DNA of 24,698 nucleotides from a virus. Taxonomy: Duplodnaviria; Caudoviricetes. Below, piece by piece: positions 226 through 23,468 of this stretch. Under the pieces are notes generated by a model that saw only the letters and a program-made list of their open reading frames with translations, did no database searches and was not told where the DNA came from. The position numbers were made by a program, and so were the translations under genes. The stretch is taken from the IMG/VR virus record IMGVR_UViG_3300042453_001085, positions 1 through 24,698 of that record; one strand, given 5' to 3'. Each line of letters begins with the position of its first letter. Within the stretch, counting starts at the first letter, position 1.

Positions 226-1299
226 TTAACACATACCGCCACGCTTTTTGCCGGGGGTTACTGTGCGACTAATTTCACGCTCAGTCGTCGTTACCGACCG
301 TTGCCCTTTCATACCCTTCTTGAGTGCATCGTAGCCTTGTTTTAGGCGTGATGGCAGCTCTTTCATGGTTTCGATCGGGCTTTTTAAGGCTCGTATTACT
401 GCGGCGCGTTCAGCTTCGTTTTCAGCTCTTTCATCCGAGTAAAACTTATCGTAAGCCTTGCTTTGAGCATCGGTAACAGCATCACCGCCGTCTGAATACT
501 TCTTTACCTTGCCACCCTTTTTATAGGTGCCAGACAGTTGGTTGATGCTGACAGGGGTGGGCGGTTTTTTATGACCCTGCGGCATTTCTACCGCTTTACC
601 TGAATCGTTTACCGATCCACCCCTAGCAAACTTTTTTGGGGCACCGCCCTTCTTGTAGCCGCCACCGTTGCCCTTTTTAACACTACCTGTAGTCGTGTTA
701 ACTACGCCCGGAGGGGTTGTGCTGACGTTGCCCTCAACACCGCCACCTTTGGCGTACTTCGCAACACCACCCTTCTTGTAGCCACCGCCGTTACCCAGCT
801 TCACGCCACCTGTTTTTGCAGGCGAACGATCAGGGTGTGCAGTGTTCATCTTGGTGTTGACGTACTCTTTGGCGCCCTTCTCAGATGCGCTCACAGGAAT
901 GACGCTGCCGCCATCCTTGTAGCCGCCCTGACCCATGGCAACGCCACCTGTTTTCAGACCCTTGTGAGCCTTCGAAGCAGGCATGTCGGCGTGCTTTTTC
1001 AACGCCTCAGGCATACCACCGTCCTTCATGACAGGACGTACAGGCATCTTCGCAGACATCATTGCCTTACGGCGTGATGCCATCGATGGCTTCTTAGGCG
1101 CCGAACCCATCGGCATTGCCGGAGGAACGCCCATAGCTGAAGCAGGCGCAGGCATACCGCCCAAGCCGCCCATCGCCATCTTCTTTGCCTTGGTGGTAGA
1201 GCCACCCTTTTTCATTGCTACGGCACCGCCTTTTTTGAGCTTTAGCTCAACGGTAGGCTCCGTGGTCATCATTTTGACCATAGGTTTGAATTGGCCCAT
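226..1299 (-). CDS. Lys/Gly/Met-rich low-complexity protein with about 14 x-[KAS]-x-GG motifs; likely internal virion or DNA-binding precursor
   Basis: ORF 226..1314; start moved to ATG 1299 (MGQFK), which follows GAGGAGG. Very basic and lies in the structural operon. Confidence 0.75.
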   Translation of the reverse strand: MGQFKPMVKMMTTEPTVELKLKKGGAVAMKKGGSTTKAKKMAMGGLGGMPAPASAMGVPPAMPMGSAPKKPSMASRRKAMMSAKMPVRPVMKDGGMPEALKKHADMPASKAHKGLKTGGVAMGQGGYKDGGSVIPVSASEKGAKEYVNTKMNTAHPDRSPAKTGGVKLGNGGGYKKGGVAKYAKGGGVEGNVSTTPPGVVNTTTGSVKKGNGGGYKKGGAPKKFARGGSVNDSGKAVEMPQGHKKPPTPVSINQLSGTYKKGGKVKKYSDGGDAVTDAQSKAYDKFYSDERAENEAERAAVIRALKSPIETMKELPSRLKQGYDALKKGMKGQRSVTTTEREISRTVTPGKKRGGMC

Positions 1300-1310
1300 G
1301 ATGTGCCTCC

Positions 1311-1760
1311 TCAAACTTTCTGAGCATACACAACGGTCAGACGGACGATCGCCTGAGTTGTGCTGATCGTGCCATTCGGGTCAACAGTGATGACGACAGA
1401 CTGGTTGGTACCAATGTCAGCCATTGCTGCCAATTGAGCGGCGGTAAAGGTTAGTGCGGCGCGACCACCAGCGAAAATGTTGGTCGAGGACACGTACTGT
1501 GTACCCGCCGCAGCAGTTCCGATAGTCATCGCAATCTGTGTCGCGGTGCCACCACCAACAACTTCATCCTGAACCATGTCAACAAAAAATTCGATGATCT
1601 GGGACGAGGCTGGAAGCGTGACAGTTGCACTTGTTGCAGTTCCGGCTGACGCAGTGGTAACGGTCGTTGTCTGACTCAAAACGACAAAACCGCCGTCAGT
1701 TGAATCAGTCAACGTGCCAGAACCGGAGCGCAAGGCAGAACCAAAATAGGTCTGGGCCAT
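1311..1760 (-). CDS. Virion structural protein (T/A/V-rich, beta-type), downstream of the major capsid gene
   Basis: 149-aa ORF with AGGAG RBS; composition and position. Confidence 0.7.
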   Translation of the reverse strand: MAQTYFGSALRSGSGTLTDSTDGGFVVLSQTTTVTTASAGTATSATVTLPASSQIIEFFVDMVQDEVVGGGTATQIAMTIGTAAAGTQYVSSTNIFAGGRAALTFTAAQLAAMADIGTNQSVVITVDPNGTISTTQAIVRLTVVYAQKV

Positions 1761-1778
1761 ATCAATCTCCTGTGAAGA

Positions 1779-1796
1779 GGGAGGCCGAAGCCTCCC
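1779..1796 (-). terminator. cUUCGg hairpin after the major capsid gene
   Basis: GGGAGGC-TTCG-GCCTCCC followed by TCTTC on the minus strand, just after the capsid stop; a typical position for partial termination or stabilisation. Confidence 0.65.
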
Positions 1797-1804
1797 AACC
1801 CATT

Positions 1805-2719
1805 TTAGACGCCGGGAGTGCCGTACATGGCACGCCAGTCGGTGAAGCCAACGTCGTAACGCTCGGTCGCCTTGTAGCGCATCGAGTCAGTTTCGAAGTC
1901 ACCTTCCATGGTCTTCTCCAGACGACGACGCATCAGAAGCTTCATGCCTTCTGGAGCATCAGTCTGAACCCACCATGCGGTCGAAGAAGTCAGACGCGAC
2001 AGAACTGCAGCGCCTTCGTCCAGCAGACCGATCGACTTGATTGGGTTGATGTCGTTGTTGGCGTTGCCAGCACGGAGAACGCTCTTCAGCAGAACTTCTG
2101 CTTGGAAGATGTTGCCCGGAGCAACCACCAACTGACGTGGCACCAGACGGATCTTCTTGCCGTTGTTGTCAACAGCTTGACGGATCTGGATCAACATCTG
2201 TTCCAGCGAAGTCTGCGACAGAACCGCAGCAGTCGCCAGCAGGTTAGATGCTGTACCGTTCACGATCGGGTGAGCATTGCTGTTCAACTGCACGCCATCA
2301 CCGCCGGGATATGCCGAGTTAAACGCACGGTTCAGTACGTTTGCCGACAGAGTCTCCTTGGTCTCGATCAACGACTGCGCCAAGTGACGAGCGTAGACTT
2401 GACCAATGCGGATGTGGTCGCCGTCTTCAACGAGGACTTTGGTCAGGGCAAATGCCAGACCATAGACCTGATAGACGTAGCGCTTGAGGAACAGCACACC
2501 GCCCTGCTGATACGATACTGGCGTACCGTCAGGCAGTTGCGGAGCCGCGCCAAAGCCATACAGAACTGGCTCTTCGTGGTAGTTACGTGGGATGCCTTCC
2601 GATTCACGGAAGACGCGAGACCATTCGTCAGTACGCTGATCGTAGACACCGTCAAAGCACTCATTCAGAATGGGTTCAACGATGCTACGAAAGTCGGTAC
2701 TTCTCATCGGAGCTGCCAT
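1805..2719 (-). CDS. Major capsid protein (HK97 fold, Mu gpT-like family)
   Basis: 304 aa, GGAGG RBS. Motifs include GGDGVQL..NAHP, PRQLVVAP and C-terminal EGDFETDSMRYKATERY..GFTDWRAMYG. Lies after the scaffold and decoration genes. Confidence 0.88.
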   Translation of the reverse strand: MAAPMRSTDFRSIVEPILNECFDGVYDQRTDEWSRVFRESEGIPRNYHEEPVLYGFGAAPQLPDGTPVSYQQGGVLFLKRYVYQVYGLAFALTKVLVEDGDHIRIGQVYARHLAQSLIETKETLSANVLNRAFNSAYPGGDGVQLNSNAHPIVNGTASNLLATAAVLSQTSLEQMLIQIRQAVDNNGKKIRLVPRQLVVAPGNIFQAEVLLKSVLRAGNANNDINPIKSIGLLDEGAAVLSRLTSSTAWWVQTDAPEGMKLLMRRRLEKTMEGDFETDSMRYKATERYDVGFTDWRAMYGTPGV

Positions 2720-2734
2720 GATTAGTACCTCCTA

Positions 2735-3307
2735 TCAGATGGCGTTAGACACAGCAACATACTGATGCTTTGTGATCTGTGCCTGTACGATTACAAAATT
2801 ATCACCCCAAGCATTATCCGCGTACGGAGCAAGGTTGATCACACGCATTTGCGCGTTATTACCAGAGCCCGCAGGAGTGATGCTTAGAGTAGCCTGAGAT
2901 AGACCTGTGGTGGTCGAACCAGCGGTAGTGTTGCTGAGATCGAATTCCTCACCAATTGAAGCTTGCGACAAAGTACCCGCAGCCTGAATCTCGTAAACGA
3001 TGTTCGGGTCGGAGTAGTAGTACGCAACGCACGAACCAGTCTGGTATGCAGTGTTTGCAGGCCAGTAGTTCGAAACGCGACGACGACCAGTGGTGTCAGT
3101 CCACTCGACGCCAGCAAAGGCGCCTTGGAATGCATCACTAGCGCCAGCGACAATAAGGTTGCCACTGGTATTAAGTCTTACAGGCTGACCTTTGAGAATG
3201 TCAGTGTTGTAAGCTGAAGCGATACCGTCAGCCAGCGCGACAGCGCGATCCAGACCACTCGGGTGGAACGCGGGGCGCAGACCGAACGGAGCAGAAGTTG
3301 CAGACAT
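2735..3307 (-). CDS. Putative capsid decoration / minor head protein
   Basis: ORF 2735..3319; start moved to ATG 3307 after GGAG (MSATSAPFGLRP). Immediately upstream of the capsid gene. Confidence 0.65.
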   Translation of the reverse strand: MSATSAPFGLRPAFHPSGLDRAVALADGIASAYNTDILKGQPVRLNTSGNLIVAGASDAFQGAFAGVEWTDTTGRRRVSNYWPANTAYQTGSCVAYYYSDPNIVYEIQAAGTLSQASIGEEFDLSNTTAGSTTTGLSQATLSITPAGSGNNAQMRVINLAPYADNAWGDNFVIVQAQITKHQYVAVSNAI

Positions 3308-3335
3308 AATTTGCTCCAATCGTTAAACAATTGCC

Positions 3336-3878
3336 TTAACCAATAAAAGTTGGCGTTGGCACTTGATCATCTAGTTGCCTAATACCTTCCCCTTCGGTCT
3401 GTCCGAGACTACGTCCCGAACTATCTCTGCCTTGAATGTTTTCTGCCTGTACGCGGATCTTATTCGCCTCTTCCAACGGTGCATCATGGTGGAAGTGCGC
3501 CATAATTTCTTGGTACTGATCCATAGGGATCTTAAACAGCAACATCTCATTGCAAGCGATGTAACCCACATTCTCGCCAGCCTTTACGCGGTAGTTTTCG
3601 TAACCCTTGATGTCGTCAGCCATTACTGGGACGTAACCAAGGCGAACCCGCTTATCGATACTGTCGTATGTGTTTGTCGTAGATAACCAGATAGTGTGCC
3701 ATCCGGGAATCTTGGGGGCATCAGGCAATGCGCTTTGTGTCCATTCGTCTTTCCACATCTTTCGACGCTCTTCTGACGATACGAACTGTTCCTCCGGTGC
3801 CTCACGAATTGGATCGTGACTCACGCGACTTGTTTCGCGTCCACCTGCAGAGAGAGATTTCTTTAAACGAGAATCCAT
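3336..3878 (-). CDS. Head-module hypothetical protein
   Basis: 180-aa ORF with AGGAA RBS, tightly packed between the scaffold and decoration genes. Confidence 0.7.
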   Translation of the reverse strand: MDSRLKKSLSAGGRETSRVSHDPIREAPEEQFVSSEERRKMWKDEWTQSALPDAPKIPGWHTIWLSTTNTYDSIDKRVRLGYVPVMADDIKGYENYRVKAGENVGYIACNEMLLFKIPMDQYQEIMAHFHHDAPLEEANKIRVQAENIQGRDSSGRSLGQTEGEGIRQLDDQVPTPTFIG

Positions 3879-3880
3879 GA

Positions 3881-4891
3881 TTAGTTCCTTCCTTGACGGT
3901 TGCGGGCTTCCATTGCATAGCGCTTGATCATGCGGTTACGTGTTTCTATGTTGTCCCACATGCCGGCATCTTTCATAGCTTTCACCTGATCGGGTGAGAG
4001 GGTAAAGGTATTCCTGCCCCCACTATTACTCGACGCTACTTCGCGACCACCACTAGTTACCACGCTCCGAGGACGGCGTTGAACCGGTTTCTCGTTGCTG
4101 CTTTCAGTATAGCGTTTCGGTAGTCTTTCTGACAAGCGATTGTCAAGCTCTTCCCAATATTCTTGGGTGGCTGGATCCCAGCCCTCTTCCGCCAACTGCT
4201 GGTCAACCGTTAGGGCGATCTTTGAGTCCAGATCACCGCTCTGAGGGTCGTACCATGGATTGGTTTCCATCCACCGGGATGCGTACCGCTGCACCCGCGG
4301 GTCTTGCTTAATCGTCTGCTGGCGCTCAGGCTGAACCATGCGCTGCTTGTAGGACTCCAAGTCCTCCGCCTTGCGCCGTGCCTCAAACCACATCTCCTGA
4401 GCGGAGGTCAGCAACTCGCCGTCACCGTTCTGGGTCGCCTCGGCAATCTTGCGCTTAGCAAACTCAATCCGGTGGTGCTGGTCTTCAATCGCCTTATCCA
4501 GCCGAGCCAACTCACCCGTCGCAGATTTCTTTTCCAAAGTGCTAATGCGCTCCAGAAGCTCTTGGTTTTGTCGATGCAAGTTTTGCAACCTAGCATCTTT
4601 TTCGTTGGAGACCTGACGGTGGTATTCCTTACGAGCCTTGCGCTTTGCCCGCTTAGCCGCACGGATGCGCTCTTGCTCAGGATCGACTTCGCCATTAGCG
4701 TCAATCTCAGCCCGCTCAGCCGCCTCGTCTTCCTCATCGGAGCCGTGATCGTCTTCAACAGCCCCACCTTGCTTCATCAGCTCTTCATCATCCGCCGGCA
4801 AGTCGCCCGGCAGCGTTACCGTCGCCGAACCGTCTTGACCTTCGTTGATCAATAGGTCAGATGTTGCTTTATCGTTAATGTCTGTAGCCAT
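3881..4891 (-). CDS. Putative capsid scaffolding protein
   Basis: 336 aa with an acidic N-terminus, long coiled coil and basic C-terminal helix; lies between portal and capsid. Confidence 0.65.
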   Translation of the reverse strand: MATDINDKATSDLLINEGQDGSATVTLPGDLPADDEELMKQGGAVEDDHGSDEEDEAAERAEIDANGEVDPEQERIRAAKRAKRKARKEYHRQVSNEKDARLQNLHRQNQELLERISTLEKKSATGELARLDKAIEDQHHRIEFAKRKIAEATQNGDGELLTSAQEMWFEARRKAEDLESYKQRMVQPERQQTIKQDPRVQRYASRWMETNPWYDPQSGDLDSKIALTVDQQLAEEGWDPATQEYWEELDNRLSERLPKRYTESSNEKPVQRRPRSVVTSGGREVASSNSGGRNTFTLSPDQVKAMKDAGMWDNIETRNRMIKRYAMEARNRQGRN

Positions 4892-4900
4892 AACGCCCCC

Positions 4901-5338
4901 TTAGATGAAAGCCCGCATTTCCAGCGGATCACCAGTTACTTTTGCGATAACTTCATGGTCGTTCAGGATCATGAATAGCGCCGGATCTTCGAAGTCATCT
5001 TCACCAGTGACTTCAACTTCCCAGCGGTCACCGCCCCACTTCGGAACGCGAATGTAGTCGCCTACCTCGCACCAAGCCCCTTCAGGCCATGGCTCCATCG
5101 TGTCGCGCTTCCTGAATGCCAAAGGGCCAATCATCAGCACCTTGGCAACCATGTTGTTCCACTTCTCGGTCTCTTTGGTCTCTTCAACCAAGATAATCCC
5201 AGCACTGGTTGCTTTCCTCTTGGTACGACGTAGCTGTACCAAAATTCTTGCCCCTAAAGGCTTCGCACCGGGTTCAGCGCTCGGGAATGCCCAAGCTAAA
5301 TCAGCTTCGTTAGAAGCTACCGGTTCATTCATGTTCAT
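4901..5338 (-). CDS. groES: GroES/Cpn10-like co-chaperonin
   Basis: Motifs KPLGARILVQ, mobile loop TSAGIIL, AKVLMIGP, EVGDYI and ILNDHEVIAKV match the GroES fold. Confidence 0.88.
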   Translation of the reverse strand: MNMNEPVASNEADLAWAFPSAEPGAKPLGARILVQLRRTKRKATSAGIILVEETKETEKWNNMVAKVLMIGPLAFRKRDTMEPWPEGAWCEVGDYIRVPKWGGDRWEVEVTGEDDFEDPALFMILNDHEVIAKVTGDPLEMRAFI

Positions 5339-5510
5339 CTTCTTCCCTTAAAAGATTGTTAAGAATATCGAGGGCTTCTTGCAGCCCCCGGTGTTGACCC
5401 ACCAGCCGTTGATATGCCTCAAACGTAACAGCGTTTCCGCTTGCTAAAGCAAAGGCAATCTCGTGCTGACGCGCTTTTACAGCACCAATGAAGTCAGACT
5501 CGTATCTCAT
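5325..5510 (-). CDS. Small helical head-module protein
   Basis: 61 aa with motif YQRLVGQHRGLQEA; translationally coupled to both neighbours. Confidence 0.7.
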   Translation of the reverse strand: MRYESDFIGAVKARQHEIAFALASGNAVTFEAYQRLVGQHRGLQEALDILNNLLREEDEHE

Positions 5511-5686
5511 GCGTTACGCTTGTCTATACCCTTGTTGCTGGAAAAATTGCCATGATCAGAGTTGGCCTTTGGCTGCGTAGCCGAACCCTGCTCTTTAAGT
5601 TCTTGACCAGTGATCCATGCACCAGTCGCATTACGGTGTTGTTGACGAACGGCTTCGGACTGCTCGTCTTTCAAAGTAACGGTCAT
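5507..5686 (-). CDS. Small hypothetical protein (59 aa)
   Basis: Not in the ORF track. AGGAG RBS, then MTVTLKDEQSEAVRQQHRNATGAWITGQELKEQGSATQPKANSDHGNFSSNKGIDKRNA; ATGA overlap with the next gene fills the gap exactly. Confidence 0.75.
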   Translation of the reverse strand: MTVTLKDEQSEAVRQQHRNATGAWITGQELKEQGSATQPKANSDHGNFSSNKGIDKRNA

Positions 5687-5688
5687 GA

Positions 5689-8175
5689 TTAAACTCCTAA
5701 GTTACGTTGTGCTGCTTCCTGCAGCGATAGGGCAGTTTCCTGCTGTTCCTTCTGTAAATGGGCACCCTCAACCGTCAGATCAGCCGCCTTCATGCGCTCT
5801 TTCGTCAGGTTGTTCTCTGTGTTCATCGCCACCTCAGTCTGCAGCTTCTGGGTCTGCAACTGGATGTCTGCCTGATCACGCATCTGGCGACGCTGAGTCT
5901 CAGCCATAGACGCCTGCAAGACCGCCTGCGAATCTGGATCGGCCTGTGTCATCTGCTGCTGGCGCTGCTGCGTCATCTGAGACACGATCTGACCCAACTG
6001 CTGCAGGGCAGGCATCACCTTCTCGAACACCTTCTGCGTATCCATCTTGACGTGCTCGGAGGCCACCGCAATCGTCTGGTCGATCGGCTTGGTCATCTTG
6101 CGCTCGTCGTACTTCTGCAGATTGATGCCAGTATCGCCCGAAGCGTACTCCGTCATCTGATCTTTGTACCAGAGCACCATGTGCTGCTTGATGTGCTCCA
6201 TCTCTTGCGGCAGGCAAGACATGGCAATGATCGGATTGCTGCCTAGCGTTGGGTCTAATGAGAAGTTCAGGTGGCTTTGGATGTGCGCCAAGTGATCTTG
6301 ACCCGGATATGCAAAGGCTGGCTTGCCTAACGCCATTGACATGTTCTCGTCAATCGCATTCATCTCGCCCGGCTTGATCGCTGCAGGCATTAGCTCTGCT
6401 ACGTTCGGCACTTTCATCTGCTTTAACGCACGGGAAACAACAGCTCGGCGGTCAAACAGGTCAGGATTCTGTTGCGACAGCGAAATAACCGCCTGCATCT
6501 GCGCAATACGCTGCGTCTCGCTGAAAATATGCGGGTCAGATACCGGTACAACGTCGGAATTGCGCTGGAAATCCTCTTTTGAGATGGGCAAGTCGGCGAC
6601 AACGTCACCTTTTTGCTGCTCGTCCAGATACCAGCGGTTAATCCGCCCCAAAATCATCAAAACGCGCTTCTGGGACTCGTGCAAACGGGCGTGAATGCTC
6701 GAAAACACCGCGGCGCCCTGCTCAATTAGCGCCTGAGTCGTGCCAACAGGGGCATTTGACGTCACATCGGCGATCTTTTCCTCCGCCGTGGTCACAACAC
6801 CCTTAGCCTGCGTGGTCAACCAGCCCAAAAGCTCGAACAAAACCTGACTTGGCGGGTTAAATGGCAGCGGCATAGCGATCTTGCGAACGTCATCAACGCC
6901 CGGAGCGCCTTCAATCTCGATTACCTGCGTCACATCGATCTGATCAGACTGACCAGAGATCTTCCCGCCCTTCAACTTCATCATCGTGGCGGAGTTATTG
7001 ATGTGCGCTGTGTCCAAAAGCGCCCGCAAAGCACCCGTCAGGGCTGCAGACATGCCGCCAATAATGTGCGGCAGACCCACGGCATAGGCACCGCGCCATG
7101 GAATGAACTTAAACTCGACGATCCAGTCGAGCTTCGTCATCGTCTCGTCACCCTCTTCCCAGTTCCGGTACAGACCCAGCATCTCGTGGTCGTGGGAATC
7201 GATCATCATGATGTACGGCGCCCACTTGCCGCCGCTTCGGGTGTCATCCTCTAGCTCTAACCACGTATAAACGTGATAAACGGTGCGTAGGCCGTCGATA
7301 TTGTCGCTGAGGCTCTTGCCCTCAATCTTGTCGTTCGCCTTCTCTGCGCCGCTCTGCTCGGGTTCTAGGGTGCTTCTGATGAAGGCAACGTCCCGATACA
7401 GTCCGCGGTCGATCCGCTGCTTGAATTCGAAGTCGGTAATCTCGTGAACTTCGGTCACGCGCTGGGCAGTGTAGAAGTTGCCGGCAGCAAATGGCAGGTA
7501 GATGTTGTCGATCGGCACGAACTCAGCGCACGGACGGCGCTTCTTCTCGTCATACCAGAGCTTCAGGTACTGTGAGCCACCCAACGGGAGCTGCGTCAGC
7601 ATCTGTTCCTGCTCGTCGCGGTATTCTTCGATCTGCTCGGTCAACTGCCAGTTCATGTAATCGCGCTTGCGCTCGGCTACTTCCGACTTCTCAGGCGTTA
7701 CTTCGCCCAGAATCTTGGTGCGCGTCGGGCCATCAGGCGGGAACAGCTCTTTAATAGCCCTCGATGCGAAGTCAATACAGGTCTCCACCATGATTGGGTG
7801 CACAACCTTCGAGGCGCCGTTGAAGTTCGCACCACCCGGAGCGTCGTTACCCATACCAGTACGGCGCAGTCCATCCTCATACTGCTTGTCACGCCCCTTG
7901 CGATCCTCTTTGTCCTTGTCGATCAGGTCGAGGTAGCGCATCGCAATGGCGTTCAGATCCATTGGATTCAACTCATCGGCGAGGTTTTGGTAGAAGTCTT
8001 CGTCTTCAGAAGGCGTCTTAAAGCCCTTCTCCATCGACACAACGACGGAACCGTCTGGCAACTCTTCCAGATCGTCCTCATCAATGTCCAACTCCATCTC
8101 AGCACCGCCATCAGGCGTCTGCTTCAAACCACTGATGAATCGCCCGAATTCGGGATCGACAGGCATCTCAGGCAT
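5689..8175 (-). CDS. Portal protein (P22-like, with long Gln-rich C-terminal barrel)
   Basis: 828 aa. Motifs HPIMVETCIDF, LPLGGSQYLKLWYD and APVGTTQALIEQG, plus a Q-rich helical tail; position in the head module. Confidence 0.85.
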   Translation of the reverse strand: MPEMPVDPEFGRFISGLKQTPDGGAEMELDIDEDDLEELPDGSVVVSMEKGFKTPSEDEDFYQNLADELNPMDLNAIAMRYLDLIDKDKEDRKGRDKQYEDGLRRTGMGNDAPGGANFNGASKVVHPIMVETCIDFASRAIKELFPPDGPTRTKILGEVTPEKSEVAERKRDYMNWQLTEQIEEYRDEQEQMLTQLPLGGSQYLKLWYDEKKRRPCAEFVPIDNIYLPFAAGNFYTAQRVTEVHEITDFEFKQRIDRGLYRDVAFIRSTLEPEQSGAEKANDKIEGKSLSDNIDGLRTVYHVYTWLELEDDTRSGGKWAPYIMMIDSHDHEMLGLYRNWEEGDETMTKLDWIVEFKFIPWRGAYAVGLPHIIGGMSAALTGALRALLDTAHINNSATMMKLKGGKISGQSDQIDVTQVIEIEGAPGVDDVRKIAMPLPFNPPSQVLFELLGWLTTQAKGVVTTAEEKIADVTSNAPVGTTQALIEQGAAVFSSIHARLHESQKRVLMILGRINRWYLDEQQKGDVVADLPISKEDFQRNSDVVPVSDPHIFSETQRIAQMQAVISLSQQNPDLFDRRAVVSRALKQMKVPNVAELMPAAIKPGEMNAIDENMSMALGKPAFAYPGQDHLAHIQSHLNFSLDPTLGSNPIIAMSCLPQEMEHIKQHMVLWYKDQMTEYASGDTGINLQKYDERKMTKPIDQTIAVASEHVKMDTQKVFEKVMPALQQLGQIVSQMTQQRQQQMTQADPDSQAVLQASMAETQRRQMRDQADIQLQTQKLQTEVAMNTENNLTKERMKAADLTVEGAHLQKEQQETALSLQEAAQRNLGV

Positions 8176-8186
8176 GATTGTTTCCT

Positions 8187-11100
8187 TTAGTTAACCGTTC
8201 GGATTGATTTCACTGCGCCACCTTCAGCAAATGCAGGCGCTTGCACAAACATCCCTTGATCAGACATGTCGGGGTCAGCGTTGTACGGGGCTTCTACTTC
8301 CCCGCCTTCAGCCATGCCATGATGCTGGCGCAACAGATTATTTAGCTTCTCTTCTAAGTTGACAGCGCCACCTTCTGCCATGCCGTGGTGCTGACGCAAT
8401 AGGTTATTCAGGTGTGCGGTCAGGTCTTGGGGCGCTGCAACGTCTTGCGATACCGAGCCGCCGTCTTTGTATGATTGACCGATCTTTGCTGACTCACGCA
8501 TCTTAGGCGGGATGTCGATGTAGTAAACGGTTTCGTACTTGTCACCCAGAGACTTTTCAAATTCTTTGACAAATTTGTTGTTTGCGCCCTCTTCCCATTG
8601 ATAAAGCGCCGTTCCAGAGCCACCCCTAGCGCTCCCGGGCGGGTATTTGGCAGCAAACCATTCTCTGAAAGCAGGCCAATCATTTTGCTGCTTACCAACG
8701 ATTAATTTTGTCTCCCCCACTTTGCCGCCGAACTGCTTGGCATACTTGTCGAGGAAGTTCTTGTACTGCTTGTCGTACCAGTGCTCCATGCCTTTGCGTT
8801 GGTCTTCACTGTAACGCAGCGTCTGCCGATTACCAGTCGTCAGGTACACGCGATCCATGCCGGTGTCTGCAGCTTCTTTGATCGCACGCTTTAGGCCAAG
8901 CTGGTACCAGTTGTCTTTGAAGGGGGCGTTAGGGACGCTACGTTTTGTTTTAGTTGCTAAATCTCGTTCCGCAATTAGAGCATCTGCTTTAGCCATAATT
9001 TCAGGATGCTTTGCCCAATCATCGGCTGATGGCGCATAACTTACTCCGGGCTTTGAGCGCAATTCTGCCAAAACCGCATCTATGTCTTTATCAATCTGAC
9101 TAAATGGCCTTGCAGATGATGCTTTATACCCCTTCTCCCTACCCTTTTGATGCCAGTCAGACTGCAGCTCATCAATCAGTAGGCCACGCTTACCTTCGGC
9201 GTCAGTGTGATCAGCTACGCGTAGGTGGAACAGGACGTTAGGCTCATCGCCGTGGTGATTGCGGTCATAAAACGCAGGATTTGATTCAGACACCTCGACC
9301 TTTGCAAGAACACTGCCGGGCTTGTTTTTAATCGCCGCTCTTGCCTCAGCCTCTGTTGCAAACATTTGTCCAGATGGATTGGCTGGGTCAAACGCCTCCC
9401 AAGCAAATTCTTTTTTGCTGGTGTCGGGTAAGCCAACGCGAATCTCACGGTAGTTCTCACCGCCCGGCATGTTGTATTCAGGATGTGAGTCGGGGCCATA
9501 CAGCGATGGCTGCTTCGCAGCAATCCTCTCTTTGTTCTGTGCGATCTTCTCTTGCATCGCTTCAATCTTGCGCTCAAACTGAGCAATCATCGGACTGTCA
9601 GGCGCCATCGCGCTGACCCGCGCAATCTCATCACGCATTTGCTGGATGCCGCCTTCGTAAAAACGGTTGCTTTCTTTTAAGCCGTCAAGCGTCTCGCTGT
9701 ACTCCGAGCCCTCTTCGTAAGGACGGCGCACCGTCTCACGCAACGGGATGCGGTTCTGTTCAGCAGCCTCTAAAATCTCGTCTCGCGTCACATCAGGACG
9801 GCTTGCCAGATCACCTAGCCCTAAGTCATTCAGGCGCTCTTGGTTAACGCCCGGGGTCTTCTGCATGTCTGACACAAACGCCGAGCCGGGGCCTTTCTTA
9901 CGCTGCAAGTTCAACGCGGCCTTCTCTGCAGGGTTGTAGAAGCCCACTTTGTTTGCAGGCGCCTTCACCTTGCCAGCCTTGCCCTCGGGGGCTACAGCCA
10001 TCTGGTAAGGCTTCATTGACTTCTCTAGCTGCATCTCCAGCACGTCGCGTGCGGTCGGGGCTAAAGCCTTACCGGTCTTCAATGTGGCAGCACCAGCGAT
10101 AGGCGCAGTGATACCCGCTCCCATCTCAAACAGCGGGCGCTCTTCGTCAGTGGTCAGCCCTGCTTGCTTCAGCAAATCCTGCGCAGCCTCCGTGCCATAC
10201 CGGCCTTCAGGTGCCAGCGAAACCTTCGGGGCATAACCCATCGTCGGCACGCGCTCAGGGCCTGTGTCCATCACGGACGCACGCTCCCGCAGCCCGGGGA
10301 TCTTGGTCTGCAGATAATCTAGCGCCTCGCCACCCATGCCGATGATGTCCATCGGGGCGCCCATTGAAAACGCTACAGGGCCACGCATCAAGACATCCTG
10401 CACGGCTCCCGGCTTTCTCATCGAGCGACGCTCTTTTTCGAACTGCGCCTTCAGCTTAGCCGCGGCATCCGCGAATATCGAAGGCATCTCAAGCGGCTTA
10501 GGCTTAAACATATCGCCCGACACTTCGCCCGGGTTGCCACCGCCCTGCATATGCACAACGCCACCCTCAGCCTTACCAGTTAGCTCTTTGATTCGGCGGC
10601 GGTACTCCCCAATCTCGTCGAGCAACTGCCGATCGATAATCTGCTTACCGCCGAGGAACTGCAAGGTGCCAAACTCTTGAGCAGCCTGCCTTGGATTAGC
10701 GCGGATTTCCGCAACCGTGTCCGGGAAAGTCATCTCATATGGATACAAGATGTCGGTACGCCCGAGAAACTTCCCGGGGATGTCATAGCCGTAAGTCGGG
10801 TGCGCTGATGGCTTTAGCCGCTCAACGCCGGGCTGCATTTGCAACAACGAATAACCAGTCGTCCCCGGCTCGATGTCACGCAACTCAGGCTCGGTGATCG
10901 CATGGCGCACATTCAGTCCGCTTGGCAAGCGGAGCCCTTCCGTTGTTTTGGTAAGCTGCATCAAGGGATTGAAGACTAACTTACGGGCAACAGGGTTATT
11001 CGCCAAATACAGATACGCCGCTTCTGGATTCTCAATGCCGGGGAAGTCAGGCGCTTTAACACCTTGTCTACCATAGCGCATCATACGGTTGAAGGCATCG

Positions 11101-12776
11101 ATGTCGTCTGCGCTCATCTTTGACAAGTCAATGTTTTTCAACAATGCGTCGGCGAAGTGAGTTGCATAGTTCAAACCATCCGGCCCCATTGCTAAAAAAT
11201 TAGCCAGCACCGGAACGTCGCCATACTGTTGAGATGCGTCATTTACCCTGCGCTGGAATGCGGCTGCTTGATCTAAGCCAGATGCCCAGACAGAATCATC
11301 TGGACGATCTAAACCAAAACGCGATCCACCGTATTGACGGGATGGACGACTCAATGGGTTTCCGCCAATCCCGAAGATGTCCATGTCGGAAATTGAAGTA
11401 TCGCCCGGCAGGGTGAGCATCACCTCATTGAGATGCTTCTCCAAATCAATATCTTCCGCCTCGCGGACATCACGGCTGCGCTGCATGTCGTGCTCAAGAT
11501 CTTGCTCGATGTCCCATTGCTTACGGCTTTTGCCAACAGGATTAGTAGACTTACTTGGGTCAAGACGAACAAACTGCCCTTCTATCATTTGAGGGGCTAC
11601 GCGCTCGGCAATCTCGCTGATCTCGGCTTTGGTCTTCGGCTTAGCGCGGGCAGGCTTTGGGGATGGCCCCTTTGACTTACCTTTGGTAGCGACAGGCGCC
11701 GTCTCAGCAGGACGCAGGCGGGCAAGCTCTTCGCCCTCTCGTGCAGCCATCTCAGCTAAATACGCACGTTCTGCAGCGGTCAGTGGGCGAGTAGCCTCAA
11801 CCATCGACTGCAGGTCTTTGCCAGCCTCAACGCCTTGCTCACCCTTCCGTAGCGCCTTTAGCAACTTGCCGCCTTTAGCCATATGCGCTACGCCTCCCTC
11901 GGCTTTAGTGATGTCGGGGTTCTCGATGTCGTAGGTGCCTTGGTTGCCGATGGCGCTCTTCACAGCGTTTGGATTGTAAGACACCACTTCACTCAAGTCC
12001 CCGTCACGGTACTGCATAATGCCGTCGTATCCAGCGGCCTGCGCTCTGCTCTGCACTTGCTTGCCGATGTAACCCCTCTCCTCATAAGCTCGATCAACCA
12101 TACTGCGGGCTTTGTCTTCATCCATACCCAGTTTGGTTAGCGCCTCAACCATTGGATCATTATGCGTACCCTCAAGAATGAGAGGATTGCGTATCTGCGC
12201 ATAAACAGGCAAGACATTTGGCGAATGCCTATCAAGGTTCAAATTGCCATCCCAAGGTGATTCTGCGTACCCAGATGCTCGGCCTGTATTCGGCGTCATA
12301 TAAACGCCAGACCCTAACGAGCCTTCCTTGCTTGGTTTGATGCGTTGGATAGCCTCATTCCCCTTACCGCCCTCGGTAGCCGTCGTGCCATGATAAAGCC
12401 GCATCTGCGCTTTGCTGGGCTCAAGGAATGCCTCCCTACCAGCCTGCAGACGCTGAAGCTCGGCCTCTAGCACCTGCCGTTGCAACTCAGCCCTAGGATT
12501 AAACTGCTTGAGTACCGGCTCCTTACTTGCCAGTAGCCTCTTAGCATCCGCTAACGCAGCCTTGCCAGTCTTTTTAGATGTCTGCGGGACTTTGTACGCA
12601 TCCCGGCGCTTCTGTTCGATCGCGTCTAGCTCTGCGCTGATCCGCGCCTGTAAGGCAGGGTCAATGTCCGGGAGCCGACCCATGATCTCATCAAGCGTCG
12701 CCGCCTTCTTCGCGGTCTTCTCGCCACGCGCCACGTTCAACAGCTTCTTGATGTCTTTAGGACTAGGCATAATCAC
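8187..12776 (-). CDS. Large polyvalent protein with an N-terminal ADP-ribosyltransferase (ART-PolyVal-like) domain; probably packaged and ejected
   Basis: 1529 aa. RLYHGT...GSGVYMT...NVLPVY...GYDGI...EVVSYNPNAVKSAIGNQGTYD matches an H-Y-E-type ART. The C-terminal region (NYRE..., HLRV.D, DELQSDWHQKGR) resembles phage internal proteins. Confidence 0.75.
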   Translation of the reverse strand: MIMPSPKDIKKLLNVARGEKTAKKAATLDEIMGRLPDIDPALQARISAELDAIEQKRRDAYKVPQTSKKTGKAALADAKRLLASKEPVLKQFNPRAELQRQVLEAELQRLQAGREAFLEPSKAQMRLYHGTTATEGGKGNEAIQRIKPSKEGSLGSGVYMTPNTGRASGYAESPWDGNLNLDRHSPNVLPVYAQIRNPLILEGTHNDPMVEALTKLGMDEDKARSMVDRAYEERGYIGKQVQSRAQAAGYDGIMQYRDGDLSEVVSYNPNAVKSAIGNQGTYDIENPDITKAEGGVAHMAKGGKLLKALRKGEQGVEAGKDLQSMVEATRPLTAAERAYLAEMAAREGEELARLRPAETAPVATKGKSKGPSPKPARAKPKTKAEISEIAERVAPQMIEGQFVRLDPSKSTNPVGKSRKQWDIEQDLEHDMQRSRDVREAEDIDLEKHLNEVMLTLPGDTSISDMDIFGIGGNPLSRPSRQYGGSRFGLDRPDDSVWASGLDQAAAFQRRVNDASQQYGDVPVLANFLAMGPDGLNYATHFADALLKNIDLSKMSADDIDAFNRMMRYGRQGVKAPDFPGIENPEAAYLYLANNPVARKLVFNPLMQLTKTTEGLRLPSGLNVRHAITEPELRDIEPGTTGYSLLQMQPGVERLKPSAHPTYGYDIPGKFLGRTDILYPYEMTFPDTVAEIRANPRQAAQEFGTLQFLGGKQIIDRQLLDEIGEYRRRIKELTGKAEGGVVHMQGGGNPGEVSGDMFKPKPLEMPSIFADAAAKLKAQFEKERRSMRKPGAVQDVLMRGPVAFSMGAPMDIIGMGGEALDYLQTKIPGLRERASVMDTGPERVPTMGYAPKVSLAPEGRYGTEAAQDLLKQAGLTTDEERPLFEMGAGITAPIAGAATLKTGKALAPTARDVLEMQLEKSMKPYQMAVAPEGKAGKVKAPANKVGFYNPAEKAALNLQRKKGPGSAFVSDMQKTPGVNQERLNDLGLGDLASRPDVTRDEILEAAEQNRIPLRETVRRPYEEGSEYSETLDGLKESNRFYEGGIQQMRDEIARVSAMAPDSPMIAQFERKIEAMQEKIAQNKERIAAKQPSLYGPDSHPEYNMPGGENYREIRVGLPDTSKKEFAWEAFDPANPSGQMFATEAEARAAIKNKPGSVLAKVEVSESNPAFYDRNHHGDEPNVLFHLRVADHTDAEGKRGLLIDELQSDWHQKGREKGYKASSARPFSQIDKDIDAVLAELRSKPGVSYAPSADDWAKHPEIMAKADALIAERDLATKTKRSVPNAPFKDNWYQLGLKRAIKEAADTGMDRVYLTTGNRQTLRYSEDQRKGMEHWYDKQYKNFLDKYAKQFGGKVGETKLIVGKQQNDWPAFREWFAAKYPPGSARGGSGTALYQWEEGANNKFVKEFEKSLGDKYETVYYIDIPPKMRESAKIGQSYKDGGSVSQDVAAPQDLTAHLNNLLRQHHGMAEGGAVNLEEKLNNLLRQHHGMAEGGEVEAPYNADPDMSDQGMFVQAPAFAEGGAVKSIRTVN
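8301..8411 (-). repeat. Tandem duplication encoding LNNLLRQHHGMAEGG twice (66-nt period)
   Basis: 8301-8345 and 8367-8411 encode identical peptides with many synonymous differences. Confidence 0.85.
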
Positions 12777-14209
12777 ACCGCGTAAGGGTTAGAGCGCTTC
12801 CGACTTGCTTCGACGTAATCGTCGTCGTCATCTTCCATTTTAGGATCAATGTCAAGCCATCCGGCGTCTCGCAAGTATCGCAGAGCCTGCGTACAACTGT
12901 CCACAAAGTCGTCATGGGTAGACTCGGGGAAGCTGCATATCTGGCTGACAAACCCCTCAGCCCAGTCCCGCACGTAGCCCTTCTTGACCGTGCTCTCGGG
13001 GATGTACACCCGCTTATGGGCGATGATGTTCGCTACGATCGACAGGCGCTGGATCTTGTCCGCCTTCCCGGGGTTGTACGCCCTGACCGGCAGGTGCGCC
13101 CGCTGTAAGTCTTGGATCAGCGAGATGCCAGCAGCCTTGTCTTCAATAAGCACGAGGTCAACCTTCTTGCCGCCGGTAAAGTTTCCACGAGACTCTTCCT
13201 CGGGGTCAGCGCCATACGACACCTTAAACTCCTCGATAACCTTCGGGCGGAGATCCGGGTACTGCAGGCGGTCTTGCCACGCATCGATGAGCATAACAGC
13301 CATCGGCCCGTCTTCTGGTTTGAATACGCCCCACGTCGTCGCCGCCGTAGGATCGTTGACAGTCTTCTCAGTGTAGGCGCAGTCATAGCTCTGTAGGATG
13401 TACTCGAACTTAGGGAAGGGCTTGTTGGCAGGCCAAAGGCGGAACATGTCCCGCTTCACGATGCCGCCCTCTTCGGGGTCGATCAGCTCGGCATAGATCT
13501 CTTGCCGGCCTAGCTTCGTGCCCTCGTACTGCAGGATCTGCTTCTTGAAGTTGTCCGCCAGATTGCCGAGGTTCTCATACGTCGAGGCGGTCACCAGCAC
13601 CACATCGTCGCCGTCCCGGTCTACCAGATCGATGATCAGATCCTTCGGCTTCGGGGTCGTGGTACAGATCAGCCGCACCTTCTTACCCAGACGCAGGCCG
13701 AACTGCATCATGTCCCACGCATCTTGCAGGTAGTCCCACGCTGCCAGCTCGTCGCACCAGCCGCCGTGAAACTGCGGCCCCCGGAAACGCTCGGGCTCCG
13801 ATGCCGGGATGCCTTTGATCATGCTCCCGTTGACTAGCGTCAGCTCGTGGAGCGCCTTGTTGTAGTCTTTGATCAGGATCGGCGGGATGACAGACAGTAG
13901 GCCAGAGTCACCCTCGAAGCAGGTCGAACGGACGTCCGAGCTCGTAGGCGCTGCCACTACCCAGCGGGTGCCGGGGTGCTCCCAAGCCCACCATCCGAGC
14001 TGCTCAGCCGCTGTACGGGTCTTACCGGCGCCTCGCCCGGCTAACATCAGCCAGATGTCCCACCACTCGCCTGAGGGCAGGATCTGGTACTTATGGGCCT
14101 GCAGTAGCCAGTTGGTGCGCCACTCGAATGCAGCGCGGTATTCAGCAGGCAACTTAGCGTACTGCGCCCGGGTCGCTGGGTCTTTGAGGATCTCGACCAA
14201 GTCGCTCAT
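12773..14209 (-). CDS. terL: Terminase large subunit
   Basis: Walker A AGRGAGKT, Walker B GWCDE, coupling motif TTTP and an RNase H-like C-terminus (SYDCA, HDDFVDS). Confidence 0.95.
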   Translation of the reverse strand: MSDLVEILKDPATRAQYAKLPAEYRAAFEWRTNWLLQAHKYQILPSGEWWDIWLMLAGRGAGKTRTAAEQLGWWAWEHPGTRWVVAAPTSSDVRSTCFEGDSGLLSVIPPILIKDYNKALHELTLVNGSMIKGIPASEPERFRGPQFHGGWCDELAAWDYLQDAWDMMQFGLRLGKKVRLICTTTPKPKDLIIDLVDRDGDDVVLVTASTYENLGNLADNFKKQILQYEGTKLGRQEIYAELIDPEEGGIVKRDMFRLWPANKPFPKFEYILQSYDCAYTEKTVNDPTAATTWGVFKPEDGPMAVMLIDAWQDRLQYPDLRPKVIEEFKVSYGADPEEESRGNFTGGKKVDLVLIEDKAAGISLIQDLQRAHLPVRAYNPGKADKIQRLSIVANIIAHKRVYIPESTVKKGYVRDWAEGFVSQICSFPESTHDDFVDSCTQALRYLRDAGWLDIDPKMEDDDDDYVEASRKRSNPYAV

Positions 14210-14421
14210 CGGCGCAGCTTCAGGTAGATGGCGATCAGCATCATGGCGCAGCAGGCTTCGGGCTTACTCGCCACCCCGAACATCAGCCCTATCAGCACAG
14301 ACAGGTACTCCGCGGCGTACAGGGCGATCTCCGGGAACTCCATCAGCTCACGGTCTTTGGTGGCCTGCAGCTCCGCCTTGCGCTCAGCAATCCGGCGCTT
14401 TAGCTCTTCGGTTATGTCCAT
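14206..14421 (-). CDS. Small hypothetical protein
   Basis: 71 aa; ATGA overlap with terL. Confidence 0.65.
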   Translation of the reverse strand: MDITEELKRRIAERKAELQATKDRELMEFPEIALYAAEYLSVLIGLMFGVASKPEACCAMMLIAIYLKLRR

Positions 14422-14606
14422 GGTCGATTCGCCATCCGCCTGCGCTCCGCTGGGGATAAGGGCTCAGGCTCTCCGGTAAACTTCTCAGGGTTGCGCATAA
14501 CCTCATAAGCCTTCGACTCACCCGACTGGGCGCCCACCACGTAGCCGATCGCTATGCCGACTAGCGTAGCTCCTATCAGGGATACGATCCATAGGAAGGT
14601 CACCAT
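14412..14606 (-). CDS. Small membrane-anchored protein
   Basis: ORF 14412..14636; likely start at ATG 14606, coupled to the upstream stop. N-terminal TM segment FLWIVSLIGATLVGIAIGYVVG. Confidence 0.65.
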   Translation of the reverse strand: MVTFLWIVSLIGATLVGIAIGYVVGAQSGESKAYEVMRNPEKFTGEPEPLSPAERRRMANRPWT

Positions 14607-14743
14607 AGTCTTTTCTGGCACTCGGGAGGTTTGCATACAGGGCGATCAGGCATAGTCAGGGTCACCGCGGCAAACCATGTACTGATCACCGCCACGATCA
14701 TGAGATACAGCACCAATAGGACGCCGCCCATCCTGCGCATCAT
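14600..14743 (-). CDS. Small membrane protein (47 aa)
   Basis: Not in the ORF track. MMRRMGGVLLVLYLMIVAVISTWFAAVTLTMPDRPVCKPPECQKRLW; ATGA coupling upstream. Confidence 0.6.
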   Translation of the reverse strand: MMRRMGGVLLVLYLMIVAVISTWFAAVTLTMPDRPVCKPPECQKRLW

Positions 14744-14904
14744 CGTCTCCAATTAGGGTAGGGCTCTTTGTTGTATGACTTGTACGGGCTCGGGCTTCTG
14801 CGCTCAAGGCATCCCTTGCAGATCCAGCGGAAGACTTTACCCCGCTGCTGGCGCTCACCACCCTCAGACGGCTTGTCCGCCTGACAGGATGTACAGAACT
14901 TCAT
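14740..14904 (-). CDS. Small CxxC...CxxC zinc-finger protein (54 aa)
   Basis: Not in the ORF track. MKFCTSCQADKPSEGGERQQRGKVFRWICKGCLERRSPSPYKSYNKEPYPNWRR; ATGA overlap with the terS stop. Confidence 0.75.
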   Translation of the reverse strand: MKFCTSCQADKPSEGGERQQRGKVFRWICKGCLERRSPSPYKSYNKEPYPNWRR

Positions 14905-15413
14905 TTGGCTTGCTTAGTCAGCTCGATGTTCTTCAGGACGGCGTCGAACACGCTGGTGTCTACCTTCAGCTCTAACGGGCTATCAGCATCGCCTGCAACG
15001 ATCTGGCGGTCGCCGTACTTCTTAGGCTTCAGCTTACTCGCTACCCACTTACGGGCGTCTATGCGGTTCTTCTGCCATGTCACCCACCCACTATCGGTGC
15101 GGCTTACGCCCTTGTCATCAACGATCTCTGCAGGGGGCTCATCAGCAATAGCTTGTATCTCATCAGCGAGTGTATCGGCCTGCTCTTCTCTGGCCTTCGC
15201 GTAATTGTCTGAGAATTGCTTATTCTGCAACAGCCACAGATAGACTGTACTGTGTACAGGCATTCTGTCTTCCATGCAGATTTGTCTTAGGGATTCACCG
15301 CAGGAGATTCTTGTGCATATCTCTGCGGCGATTTGGGGATCGTATTCAGTCTTACGACCGGCACGCTTTTTGGGCGGCTTTGACTCTTGATTGATTGTGG
15401 CGTCTTCAGACAT
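14901..15413 (-). CDS. terS: Terminase small subunit (Sf6-like)
   Basis: HTH region EICTRISCGESLRQIC...HSTVYLWL and RIDARKWVASKLKPKKYGD; upstream of terL. Confidence 0.9.
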   Translation of the reverse strand: MSEDATINQESKPPKKRAGRKTEYDPQIAAEICTRISCGESLRQICMEDRMPVHSTVYLWLLQNKQFSDNYAKAREEQADTLADEIQAIADEPPAEIVDDKGVSRTDSGWVTWQKNRIDARKWVASKLKPKKYGDRQIVAGDADSPLELKVDTSVFDAVLKNIELTKQAK

Positions 15414-15437
15414 ATCTCAGTCTCTCTATTGCCTTTT

Positions 15438-15641
15438 TTACATGAATAACTTCTTGATGAACTCGGCTGCGGCACCCGGGCCTAGCAGTACCATAATCAT
15501 TACGCCATAGATCAGCATCTCAATGCGGATCATCCGCTGGTCGCCTTTCTCTAGGCGCTTTTCGATTGCCTCATACCGGGCGTTTGATAGCGCCTCGTGT
15601 ACAGCGAAGCGCGTCTCTAAGTCCTTGTCCATCTCAGTCAT
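15438..15641 (-). CDS. Holin-like / XhlA-like small membrane protein
   Basis: ORF 15438..15683; likely start at ATG 15641 (or 15632). Coiled coil (HEALSNARYEAIEKRLE) followed by a C-terminal TM segment. Confidence 0.5.
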   Translation of the reverse strand: MTEMDKDLETRFAVHEALSNARYEAIEKRLEKGDQRMIRIEMLIYGVMIMVLLGPGAAAEFIKKLFM

Positions 15642-15909
15642 AACCCCTGATGGCTTTGCGGGTCTTCTTGACTGAGCCGCCACGCTTCTTCTCGTAGTCA
15701 GTGTCAGGCTTCATACCCAAACCCTCTTTGTATGAACGCCCATAGTTTCGGGCGCCTTTACCAAGGTTCTCAACGAGCTCAGCCGCCTTTTCTTTGGCGG
15801 CGGCTACGTAGTCCTTATCAGGGTCAAGACCTAAACCGGCCTTGTACGTCTTACGGTAGTCGTCAGCGAACTCTTGCAAGTCCTCAACTATTCCCTTGCT
15901 CTTCGGCAT
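15634..15909 (-). CDS. Small basic protein with an internal repeat and a C-terminal KKRGG motif
   Basis: ORF 15634..15966; start moved to ATG 15909 after GAGGAG (MPKSKG). Confidence 0.7.
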   Translation of the reverse strand: MPKSKGIVEDLQEFADDYRKTYKAGLGLDPDKDYVAAAKEKAAELVENLGKGARNYGRSYKEGLGMKPDTDYEKKRGGSVKKTRKAIRGYD

Positions 15910-22452: not shown

Positions 22453-22774
22453 ATTCTCCCCTTTCGCTATCGATCAGCAAATCGCCGATCACACTGATCA
22501 CGCGCCGGGCGCCAGCCGCCCGTAATGCGTCGTGAAGTCTTTTTCCTTTTTGGTAATCACCGCAGCCGTTAACGTGAACCGTCAACCCCACCACAAACCG
22601 GAGATCCAGCGCCGCGGGATTCTCTGTCGGCAGTATCTCGATCTCCGGGTACGGCAGGGTGTCCGCATACAGGTGCCAGCTCAGGCAGTCAGAAGACCTG
22701 CTGTGGCTGATCCAGACGCCCTGTGGGCGTTTTTTTTCGCGCCGTAGGGTGATGAGTGCTTCGTGGCCTCTCAT
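22430..22774 (-). CDS. Hypothetical replication-module protein
   Basis: 114 aa, ATGA-coupled between the initiator and helicase genes. Confidence 0.7.
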   Translation of the reverse strand: MRGHEALITLRREKKRPQGVWISHSRSSDCLSWHLYADTLPYPEIEILPTENPAALDLRFVVGLTVHVNGCGDYQKGKRLHDALRAAGARRVISVIGDLLIDSERGEFDGYVPE

Positions 22775-23433
22775 GAGCCTGTAGCCCTTTTTGGAGCCCA
22801 GTCCGGCATCGCTGTCGTTTTGCCAACAACGCGACCACCGCCAGCCTTCTCGTTACGCACCCAGTTCCGCCAAGTAGCATCCCAATCGAGCTTTACCCCT
22901 TTGGAGCCGGGCTGCGCAATCCAAAAGTCTCTAAAGCGATCAGCAACAGCCGTCGGGTTTAGGTCAGGCCGCTCCGCTTTGCAAAAAGCTATTTGGTCTT
23001 CGGTAGGCACCCAGTCAGCAGGCAGTCGAGTTCCACGAGACTGCTTTGGCTTTGCCTCTACATTGGTTATTGGTTCTTGGTTATTGGTTGGTTGAACGTC
23101 CGTTGAACGGGCGTTGATCCTGCGTTCAGCGGATGCCTTACCAGCTCTGGACGCTTGTTCGCGTTTGGCTTGGAAATGCTCGATTTCCCTGTCTGCCCGA
23201 CGGCTTACCCAGCCCTCTTCTGTCAGCTCAAAGAACTCTTCAAGCACCGCTTTGACCTCGGCCTCATGCTCACGCATGTTGATCTGACGAGCAACGGACG
23301 TTAAACCGGTGTTCAGCGGACGTTCCTGAAGATAGTAAGCATCAAGAAGCCTGCGGTACGCAAGATCCTCAAGCAAAGTCAGGTGACGGGTATGGCTGGC
23401 GTAATCGCCAATATTGAATTGGTAGTAATGCAT
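22771..23433 (-). CDS. DUF1376/YdaU-family replication initiator-like protein
   Basis: Start moved to ATG 23433 (MHYYQFNIGDYASHTRHLT..EDLAYRRLLD.YY). C-terminal FRDFW...KLDWDATWRNWVR domain; contains internal repeats. Confidence 0.82.
   Translation of the reverse strand: MHYYQFNIGDYASHTRHLTLLEDLAYRRLLDAYYLQERPLNTGLTSVARQINMREHEAEVKAVLEEFFELTEEGWVSRRADREIEHFQAKREQASRAGKASAERRINARSTDVQPTNNQEPITNVEAKPKQSRGTRLPADWVPTEDQIAFCKAERPDLNPTAVADRFRDFWIAQPGSKGVKLDWDATWRNWVRNEKAGGGRVVGKTTAMPDWAPKRATGS
23062..23134. repeat. Putative replication origin: four 7-bp repeats plus four 11-bp iteron-like repeats
   Basis: ATTGGTT ATTGGTT CTTGGTT ATTGGTT at 23062-23089; GTTGAACGTCC GTTGAACGGGC GTTGATCCTGC GTTCAGCGGAT at 23091-23134. 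Confidence 0.65.
23289..23324. repeat. Second cluster of 11-bp iteron-like repeats
   Basis: GAGCAACGGAC GTTAAACCGGT GTTCAGCGGAC GTT, with the same consensus and period as 23091-23134. Confidence 0.5.
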
Positions 23434-23468
23434 AGCAACCCTCATCAAAGGTTTCATCACGAATAGGT

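Follow-up and report, generated by a model that had tools for sequence, protein, structure and literature searches.

The maturation proteases of adenovirus and African swine fever virus (ASFV), like the C39 peptidases, cut after Gly-Gly. The head codes read by T4 gp21 and by phiKZ gp175 and SPN3US gp245 are cut after Glu, extend to the capsid protein, and go with a dedicated protease gene. In phage T5, cleavage of the tail protein pb2 depends on host GroE. This cut, which yields pb2∗ and pb2C, was mapped by mass spectrometry after R1127 (PMC10038345, available passages). The stretch described here, IMG/VR virus record IMGVR_UViG_3300042453_001085 (Duplodnaviria; Caudoviricetes), is called the window at its full length of 24,698 nucleotides; it is a 24.7-kb contig corresponding to half of a podovirus-type genome. 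It features a short peptide motif, X-[A/K]-x-G-G-(small)-(V), that recurs in otherwise dissimilar proteins. The favoured reading, given a probability of about 0.52, is that the motif marks joints and ends of likely head-internal proteins of this freshwater-type phage and its relatives, and that it is a likely maturation cut site, acting between X and Ala/Lys after entry into the prohead.

Motif copies in the window were counted with the pattern [MFYLK][KAS]xGG against 2000 shuffles of each protein. The pattern was derived from the window itself, so that its p-values here are post hoc and an independent test was made on 14 other genomes. The 357-amino-acid (aa) basic low-complexity protein at 226..1299 (minus strand), a predicted internal head polyprotein with a net charge of +41, carries 13 strict copies at residues 21, 29, 41, 91, 115, 127, 174, 182, 215, 224, 259, 268, and 351 (0.82 expected; shuffle maximum 5). 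With AKTGG added, this agrees with the roughly 14 copies reported in an earlier note on this DNA. The protein has no Pfam or PHROG match. Its first ~22 residues, which precede the first motif, are near-invariant among homologues and form a candidate anchoring segment; the remainder is variable. The 1529-aa polyvalent protein (8187..12776, minus strand) has seven strict copies (0.68 expected; shuffle maximum 6), which together with MQGGG make up the eight counted earlier. The putative scaffold (3881..4891, minus strand), assigned by position and composition, bears MKQGGAV at 4763–4777 in an acidic N-terminus (1 versus 0.03 expected, p 0.03), again as first described. KKRGGSV is likewise present at 15676–15690 in the 91-aa open reading frame (ORF) at 15634..15909 (minus strand), which also has a basic tail; at 1 versus 0.14 expected (p 0.13), this copy alone is not significant, and membership of the ORF in the motif set is uncertain. 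No homologue of this ORF was found among the fetched loci of relatives. The shuffle-tested scan confirmed that capsid, terminase small subunit (TerS), and helicase lack the motif and found none in the portal or the terminase large subunit (TerL) either. Two GG sites had been overlooked: LSAGG in the protein at 3336..3878, which is conserved and atypical because RE follows, and KAGGG in a nonstructural protein at 22771..23460, which is probably a chance occurrence.

The independent sample of 14 genomes consists of 12 of 15 near-complete IMG/VR records plus Caulobacter phage RW and MW202545, with crude ORF calls and protein classes assigned by family and gene order; one of them, G001, is a close relative with a portal 95% identical to that of the window. 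The family of the 226..1299 protein (g226 family), present in 13 of the 14 genomes, has 142 copies versus 9.3 in shuffles, with all 13 proteins positive. The polyvalent proteins have 59 versus 6.7 (14/14 positive), the small basic proteins 18 versus 2.2 (12/13), the scaffold class 4 versus 0.3 (4/13), and the pre-ejection, or first ejection, class 42 versus 10.9 (15/25). The second ejection protein gives 7 versus 3.5, the late ejection class 1 versus 4.2, shell and tail 13 versus 22, terminase and GroES 1 versus 1.9, and all remaining proteins 40 versus 34. The motif is thus enriched 4- to 15-fold in basic, polyvalent, scaffold, and first ejection proteins; in shell, tail, terminase, and the remaining proteins, it is about as common as chance predicts. 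When every GG is counted, 416 contexts from cargo proteins prefer M/Y/K/L/F at position −3, K/A at −2, and V/A at +2, and 1343 other contexts show no such preference; the Kullback–Leibler divergence at −3, −2, and +2 is 0.65, 0.50, and 0.42 in cargo proteins versus 0.05, 0.07, and 0.12 elsewhere. Among full-length scaffold homologues, 31 of 68 contain [AK]xGG followed by a small and a hydrophobic residue within residues 19–100, versus 0.3 in shuffles, a pattern chosen after viewing the sequences.

Within the cargo proteins, the motif sits at module joints and near C-termini. Small basic modules encoded downstream of the g226 homologue, one of them DUF6321, have genes of their own in some relatives, and other relatives carry them fused. 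Fused copies of three such modules are preceded by a GG motif in 16 of 17, 34 of 34, and 4 of 4 cases (54 of 55 distinct contexts from 80 loci, which share ancestry and are not independent events), whereas the stand-alone copies (4 + 8) start with Met plus three to seven residues and lack GG; the GG hence goes with being internal. In the 1529-aa protein, tandem motif pairs at 11868–11906 and 10536–10574 separate the ART block, a 436-aa block that changes position between relatives, and a third block, and a C-terminal cluster occupies 8457–8471, 8367–8381, 8301–8315, and 8217–8231. Internal alignment ends in this protein fall within 15 aa of a motif in 28 of 102 cases versus a background of 13%, the underlying matches being redundant and nonindependent. 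Measured from the C-terminus, the last copy lies at a distance of 2–5 aa in the g226 homologues (13 of 13) and of 6–24 aa in 9 of 14 polyvalent proteins. The Gly codons at the motif are a GGC/GGT mix like the background and not GGAGG-like, and GGA is the first Gly codon in 3% of 273 motif sites versus 8% of the background; selection therefore acts on the peptide. Class-wise enrichment, contexts, and codon use together bear out the earlier note's view that internal or late proteins carry a common label at the protein level.

The T5 cut falls at such a motif. In the GenBank sequence of pb2, the site reads R1127-A-E-G-G and is unchanged in 28 of 28 T5-like loci. R/A-E-G-G (slash, cut bond) resembles the KAEGG, MAEGG, and FAEGG of the window, and the T5 substrate leaves the virion. 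T5, however, has one site in a siphophage tail protein, whereas here many sites are distributed over several head proteins of a podophage; moreover, the domain behind the T5 site has no detectable homology to the E1 domain of the present family, a C-terminal domain of a first ejection protein that is described below. A second likeness is found in crAss001 gp45 (cargo protein C1, PF25725), the product of the first cargo gene after the tail stabilisation gene, which features basic modules joined by AxGG-type sites and a last site in front of a short basic tail. The sites lie at residues 207, 261, 330, 371, 425, 560, and 826 as read from the sequence, four of them being caught by the regular expression. 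In PDB 7QOG, residues 425–552 are resolved on the portal wing and residues 214–245 in the tail (PMC10172136, available passages). The portal-bound piece begins at A425, the Ala of N-AFGG, where GG is invariant in 16 of 16 homologues, and the tail-bound piece falls between sites 207 and 261. In contrast to the window, none of the other 29 crAss001 late proteins scanned with the pattern carries it (a set without gp50), and the available passages of the paper mention neither motif nor cleavage. The crAss link has an atlas score of 0.85 and is taken as a lead only, domain homology being not significant. Finally, lambda gpH contains F733-ATGG and Y778-ATGG. A cut at F733 would give 79.8 and 12.4 kDa, and the published fragments measure ~78 and ~14 kDa; the accessible part of a 2025 paper describes cleavage site and catalyst as unknown (PMC12617516). 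Scans for diverse T5 and lambda homologues returned only near-identical sequences. Any cut at the motif would most likely break the bond before Ala/Lys rather than the one after GG, because of the T5 cut at R1127/AEGG and the crAss001 domain start at A425. The analogy to adenovirus, ASFV, and C39 enzymes drawn in the earlier note misfits the sole mapped cut, which lies two residues before GG.

The T4 and phiKZ systems likewise have a short code on many internal head proteins, and scaffold and cargo are processed in the prohead; here the code is shared by scaffold and internal proteins, and the processing would be similar. Capsid and portal, in contrast, lack the motif, and no prohead protease gene was found among the window proteins or the late-strand ORFs scanned in two relatives; on both counts, the window system falls outside the T4/phiKZ type. 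For polyvalent proteins, release of domains by proteolysis has been proposed, with embedded MPTase or assemblin domains as the proposed cutters (PMC5512222, available passages). The 1529-aa protein agrees in being a large multidomain protein with ART-PolyVal beside head genes and mosaic homology; it differs in that no embedded peptidase was detected by Pfam or PHROG, and the passages available of that paper contain no linker motif. An internal module of tape measures, present in an actinophage (8ZDO) and in JBD30 gp46 (8RK3), begins with [FY]AxGG and is significantly homologous to the E1 C-terminal domain. For JBD30, the module is described as a predicted "hook," and the authors speculated on a cut at R1066 (PMC11445458, available passages), not at FASGG 1019. 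Unlike in these tape measure modules, most copies of the motif in the window clade stand apart from the domain and are repeated across other proteins.

From these likenesses, the following course may be envisaged. The prohead would take in the basic and polyvalent precursors together with the scaffold and the first ejection protein, and at each motif the precursors would then be cleaved on the N-terminal side of the Ala/Lys. Peptides of 6–83 aa would be left of the 357-aa basic filler (net +41), the polyvalent protein would release blocks of 291, 436, and ~690 aa that could be ejected through the short tail, and the basic C-terminal tails, perhaps serving in loading, would be trimmed. We infer that the motif-bearing proteins are packaged and cut at the motif, and that a phage factor reads it which is not a prohead protease of the classical kind.

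Several results weigh against this course. No prohead, CE-clan, or C39 protease, and no cysteine protease of the adenovirus/ASFV/C39 type, was found among the 27 window proteins or the 96 late-strand ORFs of at least 90 aa in the near-complete relatives G001 and G010; the only peptidases there are a tail-fibre S74 and a cell-wall M15. The earlier statement that no protease gene is visible in the window stands, and its proposal to look for one in the rest of the genome came up empty in these two relatives. The 1529-aa protein has no Pfam or PHROG peptidase match; HExxH strings occur in three of seven members of one polyvalent cluster. The 180-aa protein at 3336..3878 was considered as the protease and found no support: Its model has a predicted local distance difference test score (pLDDT) of 68, no PDB match at E ≤ 0.001, and no solved relative, and the gene is kept in CRP-901, which has neither motif nor E1 domain. 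An E1 domain profile aligned with T5 pb2, lambda gpH, and crAss gp45 gives hhalign probabilities of 0.3, 2.6, and 1.2, none significant, and has no match to PF25725, which leaves a likeness over five residues as the basis of the tie to the mapped cuts. The authors of the crAss study treat gp45 as one intact chain and detect peptides 275–300 and 307–320 from the connecting region (PMC10172136, available passages); these sit between sites and are compatible with either reading, and A425, where the density sets in, may mark the edge of a domain. In 12 cases tandem copies lie eight residues apart, which exceeds the needs of one cut and suits avid binding, and about half of the scaffolds lack the motif.

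The only candidate found for a reader lies outside the window. In 14 of 14 genomes, one pre-ejection (first ejection) protein ends in a conserved tape-measure-type domain of ~90 aa, the E1 domain, in most cases preceded by one to four copies of the motif. Homology links it to a tape measure module that itself starts with [FY]AxGG (PHROG, E 1e-8; 8ZDO, E 7e-7; 84 phage records). Across 75 sequences the domain keeps five residues invariant, an Asp and a Glu among them, and its matches number 18,247 clusters at 50% identity. Co-occurrence was examined in nine GenBank relatives with the same head module, covering late regions only and DSL-LC04 in part. Five relatives with the E1 domain have 31 refined motifs versus 8.8 expected (17 of them from MW202545; RW has 1 versus 1.2), and four relatives without it have 4 versus 5.2, none followed by a recognisable domain; given few and related genomes, this co-occurrence is suggestive. 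Against a role as enzyme, the domain is small and without a recognisable catalytic signature, and its profile has no significant link to the T5, lambda, or crAss domains. Its fold prediction (pLDDT 53) is unusable, and a predicted complex in which the domain was paired with 65 aa of the 357-aa protein that include the motif, run without controls, scored 0.00 and weighs neither way. The odds that the E1 domain is the reader are put well below even. It is unlikely, if conceivable, that the small domain with its invariant Asp and Glu processes X/AxGG in cis in tape measures such as T5 pb2 and lambda gpH (F733/A734) and, riding on the first ejection protein at the portal of these podoviruses and crassviruses, acts in trans as a prohead protease for all motif-bearing cargo. 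The first ejection protein of DSL-LC04 contains a second motif-led module at residue 144 (G-R-G-x-D-T-x-L-A-H-I-T-P-x-E-A; L538:13138-15417) with a loose resemblance to the E1 domain; searched for as a pattern, this module is absent from the 14 close genomes. One subclade carries two tandem copies of the E1 domain (MW202545, L083:12075-13994; many two-stretch matches), an arrangement that would suit self-pairing.

Alternatively, the motif might stay uncut in this family and serve for docking or self-pairing, as a short hairpin or an added strand could, so that cargo is loaded via portal, scaffold, or E1 domain. This possibility is granted distinctly less than an even chance: multiple and tandem copies, the preference for Val at +2 and M/F/Y at −3, the portal-wing binding of gp45 425–552, and the empty protease scan all suit it, as does the copy 2–5 aa from the C-terminus of every g226 homologue, where a cut would remove almost nothing. 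Stand-alone modules, on the other hand, omit GG and, in those inspected, contain no canonical copy elsewhere, yet share the same location, and T5 is cut exactly at such a motif. Of the two options in the earlier note, cleavage site or docking motif, processing is the better supported. Should a host protease read the motif, either while the particle is assembled or once the proteins have been ejected into the next cell, the lack of a phage protease in the scans would also be accounted for; a 1973 paper on T5 names selective host involvement in pb2 cleavage in its title. The motif occurs, however, in phages of hosts as different as E. coli, Bacteroides, Caulobacter, Pelagibacter, and cyanobacteria, and the four relatives without E1 domain remain at chance level; such a reader is very unlikely.

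Two further explanations dispense with a reader of the peptide. An unread flexible linker, spread as short similar DNA that provides recombination joints for module shuffling, would be expected in the Gly-rich, disordered contexts, at the fusion joints, and at some of the alignment breakpoints where the motif sits. Yet synonymous codons vary freely, with GGC/GGT like background, positions −3, −2, and +2 are constrained only in cargo proteins, copies near C-termini join nothing, and Gly-rich tail proteins show no enrichment, which leaves this explanation quite improbable. The Gly-Gly codons might also act as Shine–Dalgarno sequences for in-frame internal starts at a Met three codons on, since 29 motif GGs are followed by xxxM; the first Gly codon is GGA in 3% of these 29 as in 3% of all 273 sites, below the 8% background, and codon use thus makes this reading all but untenable.

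The head-side block of the window lies entirely on the minus strand and comprises TerS, TerL, the 1529-aa ART-PolyVal protein, portal, GroES, putative scaffold, two small head genes, major capsid protein, and the 357-aa basic protein. TerL (12773..14209; PF03237 and PF17289) is without motif, as are the portal (5689..8175; phrog_1216, E 5e-18) and the GroES co-chaperonin (4901..5338; PF00166), and the major capsid protein (1805..2719; PF25209, E 6e-12) lacks the strict form. The 1529-aa protein has ART-PolyVal at residues 125–281 (PF18760, E 1e-14) and further domains, and the conserved 180-aa head-module protein has its atypical LSAGGRE at 3840–3854. GroES lies between portal and scaffold in every GenBank relative with a head region viewed. 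A GNAT acetyltransferase at 19236–19808 stands among replication-side genes. The relatives are IMG/VR phages of 50–58 kb, and the capsid patterns find ~1900 matching IMG/VR stretches. Since the window does not reach the tail and ejection genes, these were examined in relatives. The nearest cultured phages are Caulobacter phages RW, GB2A, RLK, and KcrB (capsid 76%), followed by CRP-901/902, HTVC023P/027P, DSL-LC04, and Pag-Yong1 (36–43%). In RW and G001, homing-endonuclease-like genes are inserted right behind the major capsid gene (L081:34153-35658; L087:9219-9887). In several relatives, an acyl-carrier-like gene and a beta-ketoacyl synthase directly precede the ejection genes (L083:14438-15816; L102:1376-2829; cluster in 4 of 14 genomes), a pair that hints at lipid modification of a virion protein. 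MW202545 encodes two cysteine-studded ejection-type proteins, including a long CCS/CCC run (L083:10833-13994).

No description of the motif was found in the text of the open-licence literature, and the parts available of PMC10721106 and PMC11053796 contain nothing on cleavage. New here are the class-wise enrichment in the clade, the comparison of fused with stand-alone modules, the A425 boundary, and the domain co-occurrence. The motif gives an exact predicted site for lambda gpH (F733/A734) and points, in lambda and T5, to a candidate domain for mutation. For a very large group of phages, it also offers a rule by which internal or ejected proteins, with their mature domains, can be spotted, and a short, portable load-and-release code would be useful for the engineering of phage cargo in laboratory hosts. 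If true, the favoured reading would explain how pieces of one crAss cargo protein come to lie on both sides of the portal.

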